Shown here piece after piece: positions 7,870 through 35,841 of a DNA stretch of 64,000 nt. Made by a program: the position numbers and the translations under genes. Source of the DNA: a virus (Duplodnaviria > Caudoviricetes); the IMG/VR virus record IMGVR_UViG_2513237100_000001, positions 22,043-86,042 of that record; one strand, 5' to 3'. Within the stretch, counting starts at the first letter, position 1; each line of letters opens with the position of its first letter. The notes under the pieces were generated by a model. The model was not told the DNA's origin. It worked only from the letters and a program-made list of their open reading frames with translations, and did not search any database.

Positions 7870-8712
7870 CTACTCGGCGGTGCTCGGGTCGATGCCGTAC
7901 TCGGCCAGCAGGTACGCCAACCCGATCTGCATCGGCGTCAGCCCCTCCGCCTTGGCCTTGACCTCGTCGAACAGGTCATTGTTCGGGTTGACCTTCATCG
8001 GGACCATGTCCGCGTCCGCCGACCACACCGGGGCGGTCGCGGTGAACTCGCCGACGAGGAACCGGTCGAAGCCCGCCTCGATCTCCGTGGTCACGTTCTT
8101 CCCAGCGTCCGCGACCCGGGACCGGATCAGATCCCGGACGGGGCGCGGCACCTGTGGGGCGCGGGTCGCACCACTCGGCCGGACGGTGGTGTCCGCACCC
8201 GGGGCGTACGGGCCGGTCTCGTACGTGCGCATCAGCCAGTCCGCCGCCACGTGCATCGGCTTCACGCCGGTGTCCGCGACCCGCTGACGCAAGGCATCGT
8301 CGGGGCGGACGTTCAGATTTACCTTCTCCTCGCTGGTGCCGCGGCGGGCCCGCACCGGCGGGTTGGGGGTGAACGCCCCGGCGAGGTAGGCGGTGAACCC
8401 GTTGTTCACGTCGGCGGTCACCGTCCGGCCGGCCTGTTCGGCACCGGCGACGATGCGGTCCCGTGCGGTGACGGGGATGCGGATTGACAGGTTCTCGTCG
8501 ACGTTCAGGGCGTCACGCAGCTCGTACGTGGACAGGGTGAGGACCGTGTCGACGTGCTCGGCGAGGTCGGGTGAGTTGACTTCGCGGAGTCGGGCGGAGG
8601 CGGCGGTGAGTCCGGCACGCAGGTTGCGGCGGGTGGGCACGGGGCGGGGTCCTCTCGGGGGACGCCCGCTTGTGCGGTTGTTGGGCGGGCGCTTGTTGGG
8701 GGCGTTGGCCAC
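7870..8712 (-). CDS. putative regulator with internally duplicated ribbon-helix-helix-like units
   Basis: Two similar halves (LSIRIPVTARDRI...GFTAYLAGAF...VNLNVRPDDAL / APQVPRPVRDLI...GFDRFLVGEF...VPMKVNPNNDL); first gene of the leftward arm. Confidence 0.55.
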   Translation of the reverse strand: MANAPNKRPPNNRTSGRPPRGPRPVPTRRNLRAGLTAASARLREVNSPDLAEHVDTVLTLSTYELRDALNVDENLSIRIPVTARDRIVAGAEQAGRTVTADVNNGFTAYLAGAFTPNPPVRARRGTSEEKVNLNVRPDDALRQRVADTGVKPMHVAADWLMRTYETGPYAPGADTTVRPSGATRAPQVPRPVRDLIRSRVADAGKNVTTEIEAGFDRFLVGEFTATAPVWSADADMVPMKVNPNNDLFDEVKAKAEGLTPMQIGLAYLLAEYGIDPSTAE

Positions 8713-8728
8713 GCCAGGTTCCTCCAAT

Positions 8729-8837
8729 CGTATTGCAGACGCCCGGACGGTTAGTGGGTATCTGCGCCGGGGCTGTCCCGACACCCAGAACAATACCCGT
8801 TAACGTATTGCATAAGCAAGAGGGTTCATGGCATGGT
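8729..8837. promoter_or_regulatory. divergent promoter/operator region
   Basis: CAATAC-N8-GTATTG dyad at 8791-8810; CGTATTGCA at 8729 and 8804; possible TTGCAT-N18-CATGGT promoter. Confidence 0.5.
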
Positions 8838-8869
8838 GTTCCCAACGCCAAGACGACGCGGGGGACACG

Positions 8870-9268
8870 ATGCGACACACCAACCGGCAGACCGCCACCA
8901 AGACCCTCACCGACATCTACCGCAGCATCGACAAGGCCCAGGCGGTCACGATCACGTACCTCGACGAGGACGGCACCGAGTCGGTGCGGACGATTGAGCC
9001 GTTTGATGTCCGCACCACCAAGTCCGGCCGCATTCAGGTCCGCGCAATGTGTCGACTCCGGGGCGAGGCCCGCTCCTTCTACCTCCACCGGATCGTGTCG
9101 TACACGCTGCACCGGATGGCGTTCGTCCTCGACCGGCCGGAGGCAACAACTGCGGCCGGGGCCGTCATCGTGGTGCGTAGCGCCGCACAGGTCATCGCCC
9201 GCGAACTCGGCCGGGACTACCTGCCCCGCACCGCCGTCACCCACTCAGACACCACGCTCGCCGCCTAG
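8870..9268 (+). CDS. stand-alone WYL-domain protein
   Basis: AVTITYLDEDGTESVRTIEPF...VRAMCRLRGEARSFYLHRI. Confidence 0.85.
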   Translation: MRHTNRQTATKTLTDIYRSIDKAQAVTITYLDEDGTESVRTIEPFDVRTTKSGRIQVRAMCRLRGEARSFYLHRIVSYTLHRMAFVLDRPEATTAAGAVIVVRSAAQVIARELGRDYLPRTAVTHSDTTLAA

Positions 9269-9277
9269 GAGGCACCT

Positions 9278-9562
9278 GTGAACCTGCCGGACATCACCGC
9301 CCCGGACATGACGGGTCCGGTTGTGTGGATCCTCTCCGAGGGTGAGATGCATGAGGGCGGCTCGATCCTCGGGGTCTACCTTGACCGCGACCTTGCCCGA
9401 GGCGCTCTCACCGCTGCCGCCCGGAAGCTGCACGACCGGTTCACGATCGATGATGCCCGTCAGGACGACGACGGTTCCATCCACGTCGAAGGTGGGTGCG
9501 ACTGGATCGCTCTCGAACCGCACCCGGTTGTCACTGCGGCGCAGGTAGAGGCCGAGGCATAG
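9278..9562 (+). CDS. hypothetical protein
   Basis: AGGAGG RBS; followed by a hairpin. Confidence 0.65.
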   Translation: MNLPDITAPDMTGPVVWILSEGEMHEGGSILGVYLDRDLARGALTAAARKLHDRFTIDDARQDDDGSIHVEGGCDWIALEPHPVVTAAQVEAEA

Positions 9563-9596
9563 CAAGGCCACCTCCTGTGCAGGGGGTGGCCTTGCT
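9561..9596. terminator. intrinsic terminator hairpin
   Basis: AGCAAGGCCACC...GGTGGCCTTGCT. Confidence 0.7.
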
Positions 9597-9672
9597 GCGG
9601 GCGTACCCGTCAGATAACGGTGATTGTACAAAAACAGGATCACATCCGCTACCCACACCGGACACTGACCCC

Positions 9673-9867
9673 ATGACCAACCAACAACAACTCCACCTCG
9701 ACACCCAAGCACCCGCCCACCGATACCGGTACTGCCGACGCTGCGGACGACCCCTCACCGCCCCCGGGTCACGCTTCCGCGGCTTCGGGCCCGACTGCGA
9801 CCCCACCCGGCACCCCACCGCTGCGGCCACCCGCGACATCGACCAAGACGCCCTGCCCGGCACCTAG
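9673..9867 (+). CDS. DUF6011-like small Zn-ribbon protein
   Basis: CRRCGRPLTAPGSRFRGFGPDC. Confidence 0.7.
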   Translation: MTNQQQLHLDTQAPAHRYRYCRRCGRPLTAPGSRFRGFGPDCDPTRHPTAAATRDIDQDALPGT

Positions 9868-9876
9868 GAGCCCATC

Positions 9877-10092
9877 GTGAGACCCCTGAACCCTCCAACC
9901 GAGACGGACGCCGTTGAAGGCGAGCAGGACCCCTTCGGGCCGTACGAGTTCGTCGAGATCCATGATCGATGCCTCGGTGCGGAGGGGGACTGCGACTGGC
10001 AACGCTGCACCCAACGCCGGAGCACCTGCCGCTGCATGTGCCCCGCTTGCTGCGGCGACACCCCCGACGTCTGGGGTGCACCCGTCTACTGA
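9877..10092 (+). CDS. small Cys-rich protein
   Basis: AGGAG RBS; CRCMCPACCG. Confidence 0.5.
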   Translation: MRPLNPPTETDAVEGEQDPFGPYEFVEIHDRCLGAEGDCDWQRCTQRRSTCRCMCPACCGDTPDVWGAPVY

Positions 10093-11168
10093 CCCGGTGG
10101 TTCCAGCAGCGGGACCACGTCCACGGACCGGCGGATCTGCTCCATCGTCGTCGGCAACGGCTCCCACCCATACTCGCCAGCCATCACCCAGTTCAACGCC
10201 GTGATCCCCCGCGCGTACGCCTGCCGCAACCCCTGCGCCCTGAGCGGAATCCCCGTCGGCCCCGCCTTCGACGGCGTCAGCGACACCCACAACGCCGACC
10301 GGCCGCCCATCAAGGGCACCTCATCAACCAGCCGCTCCCGAACCTCCAGCCAACGACGCACCGCCACCCGGGACCCTTCCCGCAACTCGAACCACTCCAC
10401 CTCCGGCACCGGCGGCAACGCGGCCGCAACCTCCAGCACCCGGGCCTCCGCCGCCAACGACCGGTCATGCCCCAGCCCCGACAAGACCTTCGCCACCGTC
10501 GACGGATGCAACCCCGTCACCGCGGCGACCTCACCGACCCGAGCCTCATCCCGCCGCTGCGACTGCCGGCGCACCCCAACCGCCACCAACCCCGGCGCCA
10601 GGTCGTCCAACGTCTGCCGGGCCAACTCCCCCGACCGCGGCGCCGCGTCCAGGAGAACGGCGACCATCGCCAGCAGCCGAGCCCGGTCCTCCGGCGACAA
10701 CGCCATCCCGTCCCGCTCCAGCGGGCCCCGACCGGCCAGGTCCACCATCCCCCGATACAACGCCGCCAGCGACCGGCCGCCCACGGTCGGCTTGAGCTCG
10801 GGTACTTCCAGCTCCGGCAACCGCACCCGCCGACCCGCGGGCAACACCCGGGCGGCCAGAATCTCCAAGCAGTTACGAACCACCCGGAGCGTCGTTACCG
10901 GCAGCGGTTTCCCCACGTCCTTGTCCCAGTGCCGCAGCTCGCCGGCCGCAGCCAGGTCCCAGAACGGGCGCAGCGCCGCCCACGTGAACAACTGGGCGGC
11001 CGTACGCGAGGAGCGGGCCGGCATCTCGTCCCGGCCCACCGCCCGGTCGAACATGCCGACAACCATCCGCAATTGCCGCAACCTGCCCTCGGACACCGTG
11101 CCCGCCATGCCGTCGACCACCGCGGCGAGCTGCCGCACCGATGCCGCGCTGTACTGCTTGGGGGTCAC
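10086..11168 (-). CDS. degenerate tyrosine-recombinase-like protein
   Basis: RARLLAMVAVLLDAAPRSGEL (box I Arg), ALWVSL, TMEQIRRS at the HxxR position; the protein ends before any catalytic Tyr. GTGA-coupled to the Cre-like gene. Confidence 0.7.
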   Translation of the reverse strand: MTPKQYSAASVRQLAAVVDGMAGTVSEGRLRQLRMVVGMFDRAVGRDEMPARSSRTAAQLFTWAALRPFWDLAAAGELRHWDKDVGKPLPVTTLRVVRNCLEILAARVLPAGRRVRLPELEVPELKPTVGGRSLAALYRGMVDLAGRGPLERDGMALSPEDRARLLAMVAVLLDAAPRSGELARQTLDDLAPGLVAVGVRRQSQRRDEARVGEVAAVTGLHPSTVAKVLSGLGHDRSLAAEARVLEVAAALPPVPEVEWFELREGSRVAVRRWLEVRERLVDEVPLMGGRSALWVSLTPSKAGPTGIPLRAQGLRQAYARGITALNWVMAGEYGWEPLPTTMEQIRRSVDVVPLLEPPGQ

Positions 11169-12313
11169 GTGGGCCCCTCGCTCTGGGCGGCGGCCTTCTT
11201 CGCGATCTGGGACAGCGGGTTGCGGTCCCCAGTGCTGTCCTCCTCGTCGATGTACCCGATCAGGGCCTTCGACCGGTCGTCCCACCCGCCGTGCCGGCCG
11301 ATGTCCACGATGTCAGCCCCCGCGGCACGGGCACTCTTCACCAGGCCGCGGCGCAGTGAGTGCGACGTCCACTTTCCTGGCAGGCCGGTGCGGTGGATGG
11401 ACCGGCTGACGACGTCGGAGGCCCCGTTGATGCTCATCCGTCCGTCCGGGTCCCCGATCGGCTCACCCTTGCGGGTCATCTCGGCACCCATGTATCCCCA
11501 CTGGTCGATCCGCATGAACAGCGGCCCCTTGGTGTGCCCTTCGTGTGCGAGGGCTTCCACGAGACTGCGTACAGCGGCGACGGTACACAGGTCGTGGTCC
11601 GGGTCAGGCTGGACTTCGACGTTCTGCCACTTCTTCCGCTTCTTCCGGTACACCCGCACGGTGAACCCGCCTCCGGGCAGGTCGGTGAAGCTGCCCGGCC
11701 AGTTCAGCGGTGCGAGTTCGCTGCCTCGGGAGGCGATGGCGTGCCCGAGGAGCATGAGGGCGGCGTCCCGCTTCCCGACGAGGGTGTTCCGGTCGAGGTG
11801 GGCCAGGGCTTCGGAGAGGACGGTACGGTCGGCGGCCGTCGCCTTGTTCGGGGTCGCGGCCGGGTCCTGGGCTTCGGACAGTTCCCGCCGGTACCCGGCG
11901 ACGACCTTGCGGGCCCCCATGGTGTCCGGCGGCTTGTACCCGGCGGCCCGGTGGGAGGAGCGGATCGACGCGATGATCCGGTCCATCGTCGCGGGCCCGT
12001 ACGGCCGACCGGTTCGCTTGCGGGGCGTGCGCTTCAGGTAGGACAGGTATGCGGTGACGGTCTGCGGCGCGGCGGGCAGGACCCGGCGGCCCACCTGCTC
12101 GCACCATTCGGCGAACTGCTTCATGTCGCCCTCGTACGCCCGGCTGGTGTCCTTCGGGATGCCCGCCCTGACGTCCGCCTCGGCCTCGGGCGGCAGCCAC
12201 GCGTCCGGGTCCTCCTTGGCCAGCGGAACAGCCGGGGCCCGGTCTTCAGGGATCGCGGGGAGCAGGTCACCCTCGATCAACTCCCCGTCCATCACGTTGT
12301 CGTGCTCGGTCAT
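11165..12313 (-). CDS. Cre-like tyrosine recombinase
   Basis: TSRAYEGDMKQFAEWC...LPAAPQTVTAYL; RDAALMLLG..ASRGSEL; SHSLRRG; RHGGW...LIGYI. Confidence 0.9.
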   Translation of the reverse strand: MTEHDNVMDGELIEGDLLPAIPEDRAPAVPLAKEDPDAWLPPEAEADVRAGIPKDTSRAYEGDMKQFAEWCEQVGRRVLPAAPQTVTAYLSYLKRTPRKRTGRPYGPATMDRIIASIRSSHRAAGYKPPDTMGARKVVAGYRRELSEAQDPAATPNKATAADRTVLSEALAHLDRNTLVGKRDAALMLLGHAIASRGSELAPLNWPGSFTDLPGGGFTVRVYRKKRKKWQNVEVQPDPDHDLCTVAAVRSLVEALAHEGHTKGPLFMRIDQWGYMGAEMTRKGEPIGDPDGRMSINGASDVVSRSIHRTGLPGKWTSHSLRRGLVKSARAAGADIVDIGRHGGWDDRSKALIGYIDEEDSTGDRNPLSQIAKKAAAQSEGPT

Positions 12314-12564
12314 CGGCGCAGCCGGATCGTTCGTGCCGCCCGGTGAAGATCCTGGGCCATCGCCGCCTGCAACGCTGGCGTGTCCAAGACGAGCAAGCGC
12401 CCGGCAGGGCAGGCGGGACTCGTCATCACGGTGAGGACGGCATCCAGACCCTGCGATGCCACAGCATCGCGCACCTGTCCCTCGCGGTGAGGTTCGCAGA
12501 CGAGGGTGCGCCGCGCGTCACCGATGGCCTGCGCGTAGAACTTGATCTCCTCCTCCAAGGTCAC
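12310..12564 (-). CDS. hypothetical protein
   Basis: Coupled by overlaps to both neighbours. Confidence 0.6.
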   Translation of the reverse strand: MTLEEEIKFYAQAIGDARRTLVCEPHREGQVRDAVASQGLDAVLTVMTSPACPAGRLLVLDTPALQAAMAQDLHRAARTIRLRR

Positions 12565-12953
12565 GGTCGCCAGCCTTCCTGGTAGTCCGGGTGGTCGGCG
12601 TACGGCAGAAGCTCGTACGGAAGTAGCGCGGACGCCAAGTCGTACGAGTCGTGCCCAGCCTCGATGGCGTCAGACAGTGCGGCAAGACGCTTGCGTGCAG
12701 CCTGCGTCTCCCTCAGCGTTCGAGCCGGATCCTGTTTCGCAATGTGCTCGGCCTGCTCCTCGCTTGGAGACCCCTCATCGAAAACAACCGCCTCCGTGAA
12801 TACGTCGGCGTACTCCGGTGCGTTAGCGACGGACACGGGATAGCTTCCATCGGTTGTCCATTCGCCACTCAAGCCGTGGCGCGCACCCTCGGCGGTCCGC
12901 TCATCCTCGTCCAGACGTGACTGCCAGAACGCCAGCATTTCGGACTCGTTCAC
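12561..12953 (-). CDS. DUF6221-like phage protein (second copy)
   Basis: LAFWQSRLDEDERTA...AEHIAKQDPARTLRE...LPYADHPDYQEGWRP. Confidence 0.75.
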   Translation of the reverse strand: MNESEMLAFWQSRLDEDERTAEGARHGLSGEWTTDGSYPVSVANAPEYADVFTEAVVFDEGSPSEEQAEHIAKQDPARTLRETQAARKRLAALSDAIEAGHDSYDLASALLPYELLPYADHPDYQEGWRP

Positions 12954-13016
12954 GACCGTCTCCCCTGCTCTGATCTTTGACTCCATAGAAGGAACATTAC
13001 CAACAGTGATAGGCAT

Positions 13017-13054
13017 CACACTGCCCCGCGCGGACTGGCGCGCGGGGCAGTGTG
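13017..13054. terminator. strong hairpin
   Basis: CACACTGCCCCGCGCG...CGCGCGGGGCAGTGTG. Confidence 0.65.
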
Positions 13055-14313: not shown

Positions 14314-14574
14314 ATGGCGCAGGTAACCGCCCGCGACGCCCTGACCTACTCGCTCAAGCGAGAGCAGGCCCAGTTCGCGGAGGAGGCCGAGCGGCTGGCC
14401 AAGCAGGCCGCGTACATCGCCGCGAACCCGGCCGCCACTGGTCGGACGATCTCCGGCGACATCGCCCGCCTGCTTCAGGAGGCCACCTTCCTCCTGAAGC
14501 GCGCCGCCACCATCGAAGCCGGACTCGAAGCTGTCGAGCTCATGGGTGCCGAAGCCATCACCACCGAGCAGTGA
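14314..14574 (+). CDS. cassette gene 1, helical protein ending TTEQ
   Basis: AAGGAG RBS; ends in the junction motif. Confidence 0.75.
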   Translation: MAQVTARDALTYSLKREQAQFAEEAERLAKQAAYIAANPAATGRTISGDIARLLQEATFLLKRAATIEAGLEAVELMGAEAITTEQ

Positions 14575-14585
14575 GGACGACGACC

Positions 14586-14756
14586 ATGGCGCTGTGCCGC
14601 GACTGCTCCCGCGTCATCCCGTGCCACTGCCACGTCGCACCAGCCGTACAGATCCGGCCCGGTGTGTACGAGGCGGGGACTCGACCGAGTGCACCACTGA
14701 CCATCGAAGAACGGCGGCGCCTCGTCGGGGGCCCGTCACCCACCACCAAGCAGTAA
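14586..14756 (+). CDS. cassette gene 2 (CxxC) ending TTKQ
   Basis: Starts and ends in junction motifs. Confidence 0.6.
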   Translation: MALCRDCSRVIPCHCHVAPAVQIRPGVYEAGTRPSAPLTIEERRRLVGGPSPTTKQ

Positions 14757-14767
14757 GGACTACGACT

Positions 14768-14965
14768 ATGAGTAACACCGTCACCCGGATCACGAATCGG
14801 CTGCACGAGGAAGCGCTGATCGAAAACGAGGAGCGCGACTGGTACCGAACGGGCCGAATCCCGTGCAGCGACTGCGGCACGATGGTCCGCACCAAGACCC
14901 TGGAAACCCTGCCGCCGCACGGCTGCACCGACCGCCAGCGTGCCCGACACGCCACCGAGCAGTGA
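14768..14965 (+). CDS. cassette gene 3 (CxxC...H.C) ending ATEQ
   Basis: Starts and ends in junction motifs. Confidence 0.7.
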   Translation: MSNTVTRITNRLHEEALIENEERDWYRTGRIPCSDCGTMVRTKTLETLPPHGCTDRQRARHATEQ

Positions 14966-14976
14966 GGACCACGACC

Positions 14977-15366
14977 ATGGAGGAAACCTTCCAGCACCAC
15001 TGGGGACAGGTCTACGAATCCTGCAACCCCGACGAGAAGAAGCACCTGATCATCGAATCCATCGACCGGGCCGCAGGAACCGCCAAGGTCAGCTTCCCCG
15101 GCGGACGCGGAGGCCGCGACCGAAACAGGCGACGGCGCACCATCAAGCTGTCCTCGCTCCATTCCACCGGAACAACCCGAACCGGAGCTCAGCGACGCAG
15201 CGGATATCGCCTCATGGCCGGTCCCCCGAAGAGCGGTGAGGACATGTGCGAGATGTGCTACCACTACTTCAACCGGCCTGACCTGGAATCCGGTTGCTGC
15301 CAGCCGTGTACACAGTGGCTGACGGAAACCTTCCCGCGCCCCTCCGTAAGGACCACCCATGCGTAA
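14977..15366 (+). CDS. cassette gene 4 (C-terminal Cys cluster)
   Basis: GQVYESCNP...IKLSSLHST...SGYRL; CEMC...CCQPC. Confidence 0.7.
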   Translation: MEETFQHHWGQVYESCNPDEKKHLIIESIDRAAGTAKVSFPGGRGGRDRNRRRRTIKLSSLHSTGTTRTGAQRRSGYRLMAGPPKSGEDMCEMCYHYFNRPDLESGCCQPCTQWLTETFPRPSVRTTHA

Positions 15367-15661: not shown

Positions 15662-15893
15662 TAGCGGACCGCGACCATGACGACGTGCCGGGTATACGGC
15701 ACGGTCAAAGCGCCGCCTGACCGAAGCCCAACAGGCCATCAACGACGCCAGCGAGCAGTGAGGACCGCGACCATGAATGTCCGCAGGATCACCAGCGTGC
15801 CCATGAGCGGGCCTGCCACCTACGGCCCCGACGCGGGCAGTATCACGCGTTGGACGATTTAGGGGCGGGTTGGGCGTGGCAGCTCCGCGAGCA

Positions 15894-33052: not shown

Positions 33053-33432
33053 CAGCCCCTCCCCTGCGCCCAGTCGGCGAGCTGCTGGAGCATCGCCACG
33101 GTCAGCTCGTTGGGGCTGCCGTCGAGGTCGTCCCGCTCCAGGGCGGCGCGCGCGAGGGCGGCGGGGTCGATGTTCGCCAGGAACGCGGCTACCAGCTCCC
33201 CTTCGTCCTGCTCGGGGGCGGCGACGGCGACCTGGGCGAGCCCTTCGAAGTCCAGGCCCCGGTGCGGGGCGGTGTGGAGCACGAGGAGTGGGGCGGCACC
33301 AACTTGGTGCTGAAGGTTGTAGCCCTGGAGGGACCGGCTGATGTCGGTTCCGTCGATCTCCACCTTCCCCGTGACACCGTCAGCGGTGATGCGAACGTGG
33401 CGCGGCTCGTCGGCCATGCTCGGGGCATCCAT
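33052..33432 (-). CDS. hypothetical phage protein
   Basis: RHVRITADG..GKVEIDGTDISRSL. Confidence 0.75.
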   Translation of the reverse strand: MDAPSMADEPRHVRITADGVTGKVEIDGTDISRSLQGYNLQHQVGAAPLLVLHTAPHRGLDFEGLAQVAVAAPEQDEGELVAAFLANIDPAALARAALERDDLDGSPNELTVAMLQQLADWAQGRG

Positions 33433-33920
33433 TACAGAGTTACCTCCGGGTCCTCGTCGAGAGGCACGGCCTGCCGAACGCGGCGTTCGACTGTCACGAG
33501 TCCTTCGGTAGGCGCATCTGTGAACCGCTGGCCGTTCTCGTCCCGGCAGTACTCCGTGTACCGAATCTGGCAGGCCCCTTCGTTGTGGTTCACAACCCGC
33601 GAGTGCACGGTGATCGGGGCTCCGGTGAAAACGAACTGCGGGTCGATACTGTTCGCTTCCAACCAGGATCGCACTCGCTGCTTCTGGGCCTTGCTAAGTA
33701 CCTGGCCCGCTTCTATGACGGTGACAATGCGGCGTTGCACGGGGTAGGGCACGGGCTTGGGCCGTGGCGTGGGGGCATGCACAGGGCTGTGACGCATGAG
33801 CCCGCCGTCACCCCAGTGCGTCGTGACTGTGACGACTGCTTCGGCGACGCGCTCACCTTCCTCCATGTCGATCACGAGCCCGAGGGCGTCAAGCTGCGCG
33901 CCGATCTTCTGCTCAGTCAT
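33432..33920 (-). CDS. hypothetical inserted protein
   Basis: MTEQKIGAQLDALG...; lower-GC codons. Confidence 0.65.
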   Translation of the reverse strand: MTEQKIGAQLDALGLVIDMEEGERVAEAVVTVTTHWGDGGLMRHSPVHAPTPRPKPVPYPVQRRIVTVIEAGQVLSKAQKQRVRSWLEANSIDPQFVFTGAPITVHSRVVNHNEGACQIRYTEYCRDENGQRFTDAPTEGLVTVERRVRQAVPLDEDPEVTL

Positions 33921-34030
33921 ACGGAGTCTCCGGATTCGATGTCGGTGCCGTCGATAACGACCTTCCCCATGGCGCCGTCGGCGGTGATACGGACGTGGCG
34001 CGGCTCGTCGGCCATGCTGGGGGCGGTCAT
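33917..34030 (-). pseudogene. 37-aa chimeric remnant
   Basis: MTAPSMADEPRHVRITADGAMGKVVIDGTDIESGDSV: N-terminus of the 33052 gene joined to the C-terminus of the 34987 gene. Confidence 0.75.
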
Positions 34031-34616: not shown

Positions 34617-34990
34617 GCGGCACTCTCCGTCAGCAGTGCCGCGTCGTCGGCTCGCAGCAGGTGGTGGGCCAGGTAGTACTCGGCGCGGTGGCCACGCATG
34701 TGCTCCGTGTCGTCGCCCGCCTGAGGTTCGGGCCCCATCTCGGCTGCAAACGCTGAGTCCGGCGGGGCGGTTCGCCAGGCGAGCGTGCACCAGGCGTAGT
34801 AGTCGGCGAAGGTCGGCGACTCGATGGCCTTCTGTGCCCGTCGTACGTAGTGCTGTCGAGCCCGCTCGTCCATCTCGTCCCACGCTGGATGGGCGGGCGC
34901 GGCCCCGGACTGGATCAGTTGGAAGGGGAGGAGCGTGCCCTCATAGAGGGCCTTGGCTGCTACTTCGAGGGCGCGGCTGGGAAGGGTCAT
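34613..34990 (-). CDS. hypothetical protein
   Basis: MTLPSRALEVAAKALYEG...WDEMDERARQHY. Confidence 0.65.
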   Translation of the reverse strand: MTLPSRALEVAAKALYEGTLLPFQLIQSGAAPAHPAWDEMDERARQHYVRRAQKAIESPTFADYYAWCTLAWRTAPPDSAFAAEMGPEPQAGDDTEHMRGHRAEYYLAHHLLRADDAALLTESAA

Positions 34991-35841
34991 GTGGGGTCTC
35001 CTGATTCGATGTCGGTGCGGCCGTTGAGGTCGGGGCGGGGAATCCAGGAACGGATACAGCCGTGGTGGGCGGCGGGGTACATGGACGCGTCGTCGATGCT
35101 GCGGATCGTGCCGTCCGCATGGTCCGTATCGGGGTGTGAGGCGAAGCCGCACTCGCTTCCGTCGACGCACTGCATCCACTGGGCACCCAACTCCCACCGG
35201 GCGGTGTTGATCGCACCCGTGTTCGCGGCCACAACGCCCTGCCACAACAGGGCGGATCGGGCCCACGCCTCTACGGGGTGCCGGGACTGGTCGGCGTAGA
35301 TGACAGTGGTCAGAGGGTGTTCGGCGGCGAGGCGGGGACTGTCGATGCCCTCGTGCTGGCGTCCGGCCGTTACCTCGCGGGCGGCGTCCTGTGCGGCGCG
35401 GGAGAACGCTTGGGCACGCCGCACGGTCTCCTGTACCCGGCGGATCAGGTCGACGTAGAACGTGGCGGTGAGCGGGGTGAGGGCCGCCTGGTGGTCGGTC
35501 GTCCACCGGAACAGGGTCACGTCCCGGCGGGCGCGGCGGAGGGCTTGGAGGGCGCCGTCGCGGTACGCGGTCGGTAGGTCCGTGGCCGCCCACCGCTCGA
35601 CAAGAGCCCTCACCTCACGGTCGAAGCGTGCCACCTGCTGGTTGTAGTCGCGGACCGCCGCCCGGATACGGGGTGTGGCACCCACACCGGGCCGGATCCG
35701 CTCCAGAGCGCGCAGCAGAGCATCCTGCGCGGTGGTGAGGAGCTTCCAGGTACGGACGAGGCGGGTCAGGAGCAGGGCGACCAGGGCAAGGAGTTCCTCA
35801 TGCTGGCCGGTGCGGTCCTGGGTGGGTGTGGGGCTGGTCAT
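34987..35841 (-). CDS. minor capsid / head morphogenesis (MuF-like) protein
   Basis: VIYADQSRHPVEAWA...CVDGSEC...AHHGCIRSW. Confidence 0.7.
   Translation of the reverse strand: MTSPTPTQDRTGQHEELLALVALLLTRLVRTWKLLTTAQDALLRALERIRPGVGATPRIRAAVRDYNQQVARFDREVRALVERWAATDLPTAYRDGALQALRRARRDVTLFRWTTDHQAALTPLTATFYVDLIRRVQETVRRAQAFSRAAQDAAREVTAGRQHEGIDSPRLAAEHPLTTVIYADQSRHPVEAWARSALLWQGVVAANTGAINTARWELGAQWMQCVDGSECGFASHPDTDHADGTIRSIDDASMYPAAHHGCIRSWIPRPDLNGRTDIESGDPT

Follow-up and report, generated by a model that had tools for sequence, protein, structure and literature searches.

Why would an operon place a tyrosine recombinase with a complete catalytic set directly ahead of a second recombinase-like protein that lacks the catalytic tyrosine? 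The question is raised by two minus-strand genes in a 64-kb stretch (here called the window) of the 86,042-bp virus record IMGVR_UViG_2513237100_000001, record positions 22043-86042. Gene 1 (11165-12313) encodes a Cre-like tyrosine recombinase of 382 amino acids (aa), and gene 2 (10086-11168) encodes a 360-aa protein, P0002. An earlier note on this DNA had described a recombinase translationally coupled to a catalytically incomplete paralogue, which might act as an architectural or directionality factor, or as a regulator. Here we report that P0002 is a member of an unnamed actinomycete family derived from tyrosine recombinases, and that its gene, judged from sequence comparisons, has evolved independently of which recombinase is its neighbour and, in one clade, has persisted with none beside it.

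Read back from the DNA, gene 2 is an intact open reading frame (ORF) with the motifs that the earlier note had pointed out. A core-binding-like N-terminal domain is followed by a catalytic-like domain that ends before the W- and Y-bearing helices. Box I reads APRSGEL (R178, G180 and E181; 10623-10643, minus strand), and its three key residues are invariant in 22 of 22 sequences that carry a helix-turn-helix (HTH) insertion, while R178 is replaced in some HTH-less members of the family. In place of the box II HxxR stands EQIRR (E343, R346 and R347; 10128-10142, minus strand), so that the box II arginine is retained and the histidine has become a glutamate. The protein ends 14 residues past R346, and this tail contains neither the third-box H/W nor a tyrosine that could serve as nucleophile.

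The AlphaFold2 model of P0002, built on 22 homologues, has a mean predicted local distance difference test (pLDDT) score of 83, and its top Foldseek matches in the PDB are all tyrosine recombinases. The similarity to XerH, Cre, Tn1549 Int and IntI extends through both domains over about 245 residues (VIA Z 10.6-11.9), and the structural alignments end at about Cre residue 314-316, just ahead of the Tyr-bearing helix. An HTH-less member of the family, P0158 (model pLDDT 85), matches XerA with Z 14.5, Cre with Z of about 12.5, SroF with Z 11.9 and the XerD catalytic domain with Z 13.0 (root-mean-square deviation 2.9 Å over 143 residues). At the level of the single sequence, P0002 matched no recombinase family in Pfam (no PF00589 at E ≤1), no NCBIfam model and, by phmmer against all PDB sequences, nothing at E ≤10. 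A profile of 29 family members matched XerA (8.4e-6) and XerD (0.004) around box I and returned only Xer recombinases; box I of gene 2 aligns with box I of both proteins and with R196 of the recombinase profile. Pfam Phage_integrase was matched by 11 of 28 distant members, two of them above the gathering score, and none of these matches extends beyond position 140 of the model's 172. On the strength of these fold matches and of the sequence links of the family to XerA, XerD and Phage_integrase, we assign P0002 to the recombinase fold, and the predicted structure marks it as a catalytically incomplete tyrosine-recombinase-fold protein. The word paralogue finds no backing in the comparison of the two neighbours: the best BLASTP match between gene 1 and gene 2 has an E value of 5.2, which is not significant, and a profile-profile alignment of the gene-2 family with the 22 recombinases that neighbour it scores weakly (probability 20%, E 0.0011), with R178 placed on R196 and E343-x-x-R346 on H318-S-L-R321.

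The catalytic lysine of a recombinase sits in the turn of a β-hairpin, and in gene 2 this turn is filled by an insertion between the two β-strands (residues 205-255; 10404-10556, minus strand). The HTH-like character suspected by the earlier note is borne out by the model, in which residues 206-255 match the LacI-type HTH domains of CcpA and RbsR (Z 5.6-6.0), and several homologues have a precomputed PF00356 match. The insertion is limited to the pZL12-like clade and is missing from the distant members. In databases the family goes by the names ‘hypothetical’, ‘LacI family regulator’ and ‘site-specific integrase’. We rejected the second of these for gene 2, in which the HTH is internal and comprises about 50 residues and the remainder has the recombinase fold; the LacI layout of an N-terminal HTH and a periplasmic-binding-protein-like effector domain is not found.

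To delimit the family, we searched for homologues of gene 2. A word-index search returned 197 at E ≤0.001, of which the 120 listed measure 289-393 aa and, where named, are from Streptomyces or unclassified actinobacteria; an exhaustive search gave 119 cluster representatives at the same threshold. In an alignment of 29 members, R346 never varies, E343 and R347 hardly do, and none of the 29, nor any of three long representatives, has the canonical H/W...Y tail. Some distant members have a C-terminal extension of about 100 aa, in which a hidden tyrosine was considered and rejected, as no Tyr is conserved there. The alignment thus indicates that the missing tyrosine is a family trait and not a local truncation, the simple explanation that the earlier note had wished to see checked. 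Our literature searches found no description of the pair, of the family or of tyrosine-less recombinases in Streptomyces plasmid-phages, and in the literature that mentions pZL12, its primary description aside, we found nothing on these genes.

The pattern of substitution shows that gene 2 is kept by purifying selection. Among gene 2 and seven close homologues, the pairwise ratio of nonsynonymous to synonymous substitution rates (dN/dS), which the earlier note had proposed to check, is 0.13-0.52 (28 pairs), and among the recombinases it is 0.125-0.20 (10 pairs). The regional medians for gene 2 are 0.19 in the N-terminal domain, 0.20 and 0.23 in the catalytic-like domain and 0.85 in the HTH insertion, so that the HTH region evolves about four times faster than the other parts of the gene, as expected for a specificity determinant.

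The residues ascribed to gene 1 by the earlier note were confirmed. R196, H318-x-x-R321, W344 and Y354 align onto the RxxE, HSAR, GGW and NYI motifs of Cre, and the full R-K-H-R-H/W-Y set is present (R196, 11726-11728; K225, 11639-11641; H318, 11360-11362; R321, 11351-11353; W344, 11282-11284; Y354, 11252-11254; all minus strand). R196, K225, H318 and Y354 are invariant in an alignment of 22 neighbouring recombinases, in which that of pZL12 is not included. In Pfam, gene 1 matches Phage_int_SAM_1 (5.9e-5) and, under the gathering score, Phage_integrase (2.1e-4), and its sequence matches in the PDB, 17 in all, are to Cre or Tre throughout (E 6.9e-7 to 3.1e-5); nothing else in the 86-kb record matches PF00589. 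Cre resolves dimers of the P1 plasmid. Gene 1, like P1 Cre, lies on a plasmid-prophage; its sequence identity to Cre is low (E ~1e-6). By analogy, its probable task is the resolution of plasmid multimers or the circularisation of the genome. We found no 13-8-13 lox-like site conserved among relatives, and Cre, unlike gene 1, acts alone, with no coupled pseudo-recombinase. Both genes of the pair have a G+C content of 0.85 at third codon positions (GC3). They overlap by the four nucleotides GTGA (11165-11168, minus strand), where the GTG start of gene 2 lies within the TGA of gene 1, just downstream of a Shine-Dalgarno-like GAGGGG motif.

To ask how constant this arrangement is, we compared 56 loci (L-numbers below) drawn from one-genome-per-species contigs. 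An HTH-type homologue of gene 2 occurs in 35 of them (L002-L035 and L056), of which L011 and L024 were excluded for too little upstream DNA. Among the 33 assessable loci, 24 have a recombinase upstream: 22 a full-length tyrosine recombinase on the same strand (Pfam and tblastn), one the last 25 recombinase codons at the contig edge (L006), and one a 136-aa 3' remnant of a lineage-3 recombinase that keeps the GTGA overlap with the gene-2 homologue (L021, 3537-3944). Upstream of this last remnant, the 1.1-Mb scaffold continues as chromosomal-type sequence; an element that has integrated or decayed may explain this, or a faulty join. Spacing was measured in 23 pairs, namely those of the window, of pZL12 and of 21 loci; L033 was excluded because its gene-2 frame is broken. 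The two genes share the GTGA overlap in 11 pairs and an 8-nt overlap in one, and are separated by 14-32 nt in five and by 373-1005 nt in six, the larger gaps containing inserted genes such as EndoVII in pZL12 and GNAT in L017. Translational coupling is thus a recurrent feature of the pair. In L033 (4001-5154), a complete plasmid record, the gene-2 homologue seems to lie in at least two frame pieces, and the upstream recombinase is intact.

The identity of the recombinase is far less constant. The 23 neighbouring recombinases form five lineages with less than 45% identity between them, whereas the gene-2 homologues of the same pairs fall mostly into one cluster. L003 and L004 are 87% identical in gene 2 and 31% in the recombinase, L004 and L008 are 89% and 29% identical, and L004 and L032 show the reverse, with 54% in gene 2 and 87% in the recombinase. 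A maximum-likelihood tree built from 37 gene-2 homologues has well-supported branches that require no fewer than five changes of the lineage label c2, three of c3 and two of c1, and the c2 and c3 labels cluster on the tree no better than shuffled ones.

Nine further loci have nothing recombinase-like within 4 kb of the gene-2 homologue. All nine of these solo genes fall into a single clade (support 100/100) that lies within the paired genes, and in the five solo genomes examined the gene-bearing contig carries no PF00589 match. Next to the solo genes stand chromosomal genes, or genes of the Prim-Pol and D5-type primase kinds. Selection on them is purifying, with dN/dS values of 0.15-0.34 (36 pairs), and they retain all 15 conserved residues checked, including R178, E181, E343 and R346. 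The expectation of a conserved pair therefore holds in part: the recombinase is the usual neighbour, but it is not an obligate one. Together, these comparisons of sequences and trees show that the evolution of gene 2 is uncoupled from which recombinase stands next to it and, in the solo clade, from whether one is there at all. A fixed and co-evolving pair in which both members are catalytic, after the manner of XerC/D, is not what we observe, given the missing tyrosine, the shuffled partners and the solo clade. Of the pseudo-recombinase in the earlier note, the recombinase fold without a nucleophile stands, and extends to the whole family, while recent paralogy with the neighbour and an obligate pairing find no support.

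The HTH-less relatives occupy a different neighbourhood. A ParA-type ATPase gene lies within 4 kb of the homologue in 11 of 14 HTH-less loci (L038-L050 and L053), the 11 being L038, L041-L046, L048-L050 and L053. Several of them show the order parA, an ORF of about 104 aa with a weak CB_ParB_C match, and then the homologue. Genes for a Tn3-family transposase, a zeta-toxin and a HIT protein are found nearby, which suggests that these loci belong to plasmid backbones. In two Oryzihumus loci, a PD-(D/E)XK nuclease gene lies upstream of the homologue.

Recombinase-fold proteins without recombinase function have been described in other phages. MrpR has the recombinase fold, has lost the recombinase function and acts as a master repressor that binds repeated elements (PMC10516654), and SroF is described as a repressor that binds DNA through an integrase-like fold (bioRxiv 10.1101/2025.11.27.690993). 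MrpR/YopR of the Bacillus phage SPbeta and SroF of phi3T, which are reported to bind DNA without recombining it, have in common with gene 2 a phage-encoded, two-domain tyrosine-recombinase fold; their fold matches reach Z 8.0-10.0 with P0002 and 9.4-11.9 with P0158. The catalytic residues were lost in opposite ways. According to Table 3 of the MrpR report (PMC10516654), MrpR keeps the tyrosine (Y304) and lacks the box I arginine (R-I) and the box II histidine, whereas P0002 keeps R-I and the box II arginine (R-II) and has lost the W/Y segment. P0002 further differs from MrpR and SroF in its inserted LacI-type HTH and in its coupling to a Cre-like tyrosine recombinase, whereas SPbeta has a serine recombinase. 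A repressor role is reported for MrpR and SroF, and a comparable role is proposed for P0002 by analogy. TnsF of Tn6022-like Tn7 transposons offers a parallel that we draw by description: it has an inactivated tyrosine-recombinase domain with a lost catalytic chamber and a function in site-specific target recognition, and in Tsy elements its active relatives act together with another tyrosine recombinase and with a small protein of the HTH type (PMC10293859). TnsF differs in belonging to a transposon and in its N-terminal zinc fingers, and it is not known from a phage-plasmid.

Tandem recombinase-fold or helper genes that act at one site, as in XerC/XerD, the RIT trios and TnpS/TnpT, are the other obvious comparison. 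To our knowledge, all partners in XerC/D and RIT retain the tyrosine. The gene 2 system differs from these three in that the second protein is non-cleaving, the partners do not co-vary and the second gene also occurs solo. The closest described relative of the arrangement is found in Streptomyces phage ZL12, where pZL12.34c, which shares 56% identity with P0002 from end to end and is annotated as a hypothetical protein only, lies downstream of an ‘integrase/recombinase’ in the order pZL12.36c / pZL12.35c / pZL12.34c and in the same orientation as in the window. There, an EndoVII-like gene separates the two, and the recombinase, which is of a different lineage, has 29% identity to gene 1.

A DNA site for either protein was sought around the operon. 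A perfect inverted repeat with 16-nt arms and an asymmetric 6-nt spacer (13017-13054, no strand assigned) directly adjoins the ATG with which the operon's first gene begins and is a candidate operator or recombination core site; it is probably the 34-bp site whose co-occurrence with the pair the earlier note had suggested checking. The repeat is unique in the window and in the 86-kb record, and with up to three mismatches it is absent from the genomes of four out of four relatives with the same recombinase lineage. It does not co-occur with the pair in these relatives, and conservation gives no support for the repeat as a lox-like site. Three lineage-1 loci have a 13-6-13 inverted repeat (GGAGAAGTCGTTG / CAACGGCTTCTCC; L017 1516-1547, L022 2058-2089 and L034 2582-2613) with conserved arms and three different 6-nt spacers, 315-720 nt upstream of the recombinase gene, which looks like a recombination core site. 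A repeat of the CTCGTATAA type upstream of some operons is complete in only three of 22 loci, and consensus scans for promoters and terminators gave no sites.

What, then, might the gene 2 product do? We see an even chance that it is an autonomous, sequence-specific and non-catalytic DNA-binding protein, a regulator or architectural factor that is independent of any particular recombinase. This reading follows from the shuffled recombinase lineages, the solo clade under purifying selection and the HTH-less relatives beside parA. An ancestral tyrosine recombinase would have lost the C-terminal helices that bear the H/W and the nucleophilic Tyr, and with their loss the protein should be unable to form a covalent intermediate. 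What remains would be a C-shaped DNA clamp of two domains with the arginines that contact phosphate, to which the HTH clade would have added a LacI-type HTH, placed in the hairpin that ordinarily extends into the DNA. Working like MrpR and SroF, the protein may then serve as a regulator or architectural factor of a plasmid-prophage maintenance module, and its translational coupling at the operon end would provide it at a fixed ratio to the recombinase. Of the alternatives in the earlier note, the regulator fits better than a dedicated helper of the TnpS/TnpT or XerC/D kind.

Several observations weigh against an autonomous binder. A recombinase next door is still the rule in the plasmid-phage copies (24 of 33), and the GTGA coupling survives the swaps of lineage, which together suggest some functional tie to recombination. 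R-I within the HTH clade and R-II throughout the family are kept, unlike in MrpR, and the protein could therefore still engage a recombination-type site. The fold similarity of P0002 to MrpR, YopR and SroF is below that to true recombinases, and neither phmmer against the PDB nor the family-profile search linked its sequence to MrpR or SroF. Searches of the window by direct repeats and k-mers gave no usable repeated operator-like element, and a comparison of 11-mers across six close loci gave no usable shared non-coding motif. Another candidate regulator also lies next door, the WYL-domain small protein encoded at 8828-9268 (plus strand), which is a candidate for the switch regulator.

The main rival is an accessory role in recombination, which persistent adjacency and translational coupling keep alive. 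The gene 2 product would bind at or beside the site of the upstream recombinase and shape the synapse, perhaps as a filter for direction or topology, or perhaps by covering one half-site and so limiting exchange to a single strand pair; lineage-specific protein contacts would not be required. Such a role accords with the upstream recombinase in 24 of 33 loci, the overlap or gap of at most 32 nt in 17 of 23 pairs, the retention of R-I and R-II, the gene for an EndoVII-type junction nuclease between the pZL12 pair, and the lineage-specific inverted repeats upstream of the operon (16-6-16 in the window, 13-6-13 in lineage 1). It is harder to reconcile with a solo clade that is under purifying selection with no recombinase on the contig, with recombinase lineages that change repeatedly under a near-constant gene 2, and with the absence of the window repeat from all four relatives of the same recombinase lineage, and we consider it possible but doubtful. 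A dedicated heteromeric recombinase partner is less likely. One version has the protein lend an arginine pocket (R178 and R346) to a hemi-active heteromer, with the tyrosine supplied in trans as in Flp, or sit as a non-cleaving subunit that stops the reaction at the Holliday junction. The retention of R178, E181 and R346 under selection, the equimolar synthesis that translational coupling would yield and the EndoVII gene between the pZL12 pair would suit it, but the box II His is Glu in nearly all of the family, the Lys hairpin is replaced by the HTH, R178 is lost in some family members, and solo copies and the lack of co-variation with the recombinase lineage tell the same way; we therefore hold it to be very improbable. 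In a broader form, gene 2 would be a structural subunit of the synapse that sits on half-sites by means of the arginine pocket it has kept, with the tyrosine supplied in trans by whichever recombinase lies upstream or the second strand exchange blocked, so that the Holliday junction is resolved otherwise, and would be a generic ‘dead partner’ for five lineages; this too strikes us as quite improbable.

The HTH-less loci suggest another role, in which the protein is a centromere-type or segregation-associated DNA binder that works with ParA systems, and the plasmid-phage copy aids segregation. Besides the ParA-type ATPase gene within 4 kb in 11 of 14 HTH-less loci, a ParA-like match lies about 11 kb from the pair in the record, and the yeast centromere protein Ndc10 is among the fold matches (Z 8.1-8.4). 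At that distance, however, parA is no close neighbour of gene 2, the recombinase being the immediate one, and in the parA loci a small ParB-like ORF already fills the adaptor role. Multimer-resolution genes commonly adjoin par loci, which makes the adjacency to parA ambiguous, and the solo copies stand beside chromosomal or primase genes and not par genes. We judge a partition role unlikely. That gene 2 is the decaying, functionless remnant of a duplicated recombinase gene would explain the missing catalytic tail and the failure of P0002 to match a Pfam recombinase family, but with 197 homologues, the 120 listed at 289-393 aa, dN/dS well below 1 in paired and solo lineages alike, invariant conserved residues and a confidently predicted fold, we rejected decay as scarcely conceivable.

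The host element is, from its gene content, a pZL12-like Streptomyces plasmid-prophage that combines Rep-like and ParA-like genes with Tra genes, lysis genes and structural genes of a siphovirus. In the window (G+C 65-73%), the long ORFs were scanned against PHROG, which identified siphovirus tail, tape-measure, major head and portal proteins and an endolysin, and further matched an FtsK/SpoIIIE-like Tra protein, a single-strand annealing protein and a replication-initiator-like protein; the ParA-like match lies in the record just beyond the window edge. The sole phage record with homologues of both genes is that of ZL12 (pZL12), a circular 90-kb Streptomyces plasmid-phage, and contigs of 84-100 kb carry 48 of the 120 gene-2 homologues listed. 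This gene set, the ParA-like match, the ZL12 homologues and the contig sizes support the assignment. The pair lies in the interior of the element, in agreement with the mid-element position given by the earlier note.

Gene 1 and gene 2 make up the 3' half of a minus-strand four-gene operon, all genes of which are joined by three 4-nt overlaps. The first gene (12561-13016, minus strand) encodes a 151-aa DUF6221 protein (Pfam 1.1e-20) and shares a GTGA overlap with the second; DUF6221 homologues were found by tblastn upstream of the recombinase in six loci. The second gene (12310-12564, minus strand) encodes an 84-aa protein of no family, and its stop codon runs into the recombinase start (ATGA); the search for homologues gave a single one, in L007. 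A PADLOC scan for defence systems gave no match for the four operon proteins or two relatives.

The 490-nt ‘gap’ downstream of gene 2 was considered as a site and rejected, as it is occupied by convergent small plus-strand genes and a hairpin. The small genes that converge on gene 2 are conserved (9596-9867 and 9877-10092 in the window, plus strand); one product is about 64 aa long with a RYCRRCGRPLT...GFGPDC motif, and a Cys-rich one has 71 aa. Next to the hairpin at 9562-9595 lies a conserved block, TACAATCACCGTTATCTGACGGGTACG. The WYL-domain protein is a homologue of pZL12.31, which is annotated as a ‘transcriptional regulator’, and its gene is divergent from the early, recombination and replication genes (including 7870-8793, minus strand) and convergent with gene 2. 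Between the WYL-domain gene and the divergent pZL12.30c-like gene lie A/T-richer palindromes of the form ATTGCG...CGCAAT (L013 6315-6348, L014 6306-6335, L015 6154-6187, L016 7110-7143, L022 6085-6118 and L034 5658-5691), which are candidate early-region operators.

Other repeats in the window appear to belong to tandem small genes. A 31-nt motif that reads ...CCGAGCAGTGAGGACSACGACCATG occurs in four copies with 81-100% identity (14558-14588, 14740-14770, 14949-14979 and 15745-15775); it is the conserved junction of stop, ribosome-binding site and ATG between successive small plus-strand genes, and is probably the ‘cassette motif’ of the earlier note. In the structural-gene region, an 87-nt repeat (33340-33426 and 33938-34024, 87% identical) and a 38-nt repeat (33916-33953 and 34986-35023, 84% identical) suggest tandem paralogous small genes with similar 5' ends.

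Proteins with a recombinase fold that no longer recombine, such as the repressors MrpR and SroF and the target selector TnsF, are a recently recognised class. The gene-2 family took a different route to inactivation, in which the Tyr-bearing C-terminus was lost, the arginines were kept and a LacI-type HTH was grafted into the DNA-contacting hairpin, and it is widespread, with members in Streptomyces plasmid-phages, in a chromosomal solo clade and beside plasmid partition genes. A correct description of the family would mend its annotations in databases. Should the gene 2 product act in a heteromer with the recombinase after all, this would be a new mode of regulating tyrosine recombination. 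The family also offers an entry point to the control of maintenance versus lytic growth in the ~90-kb plasmid-phages of Streptomyces.

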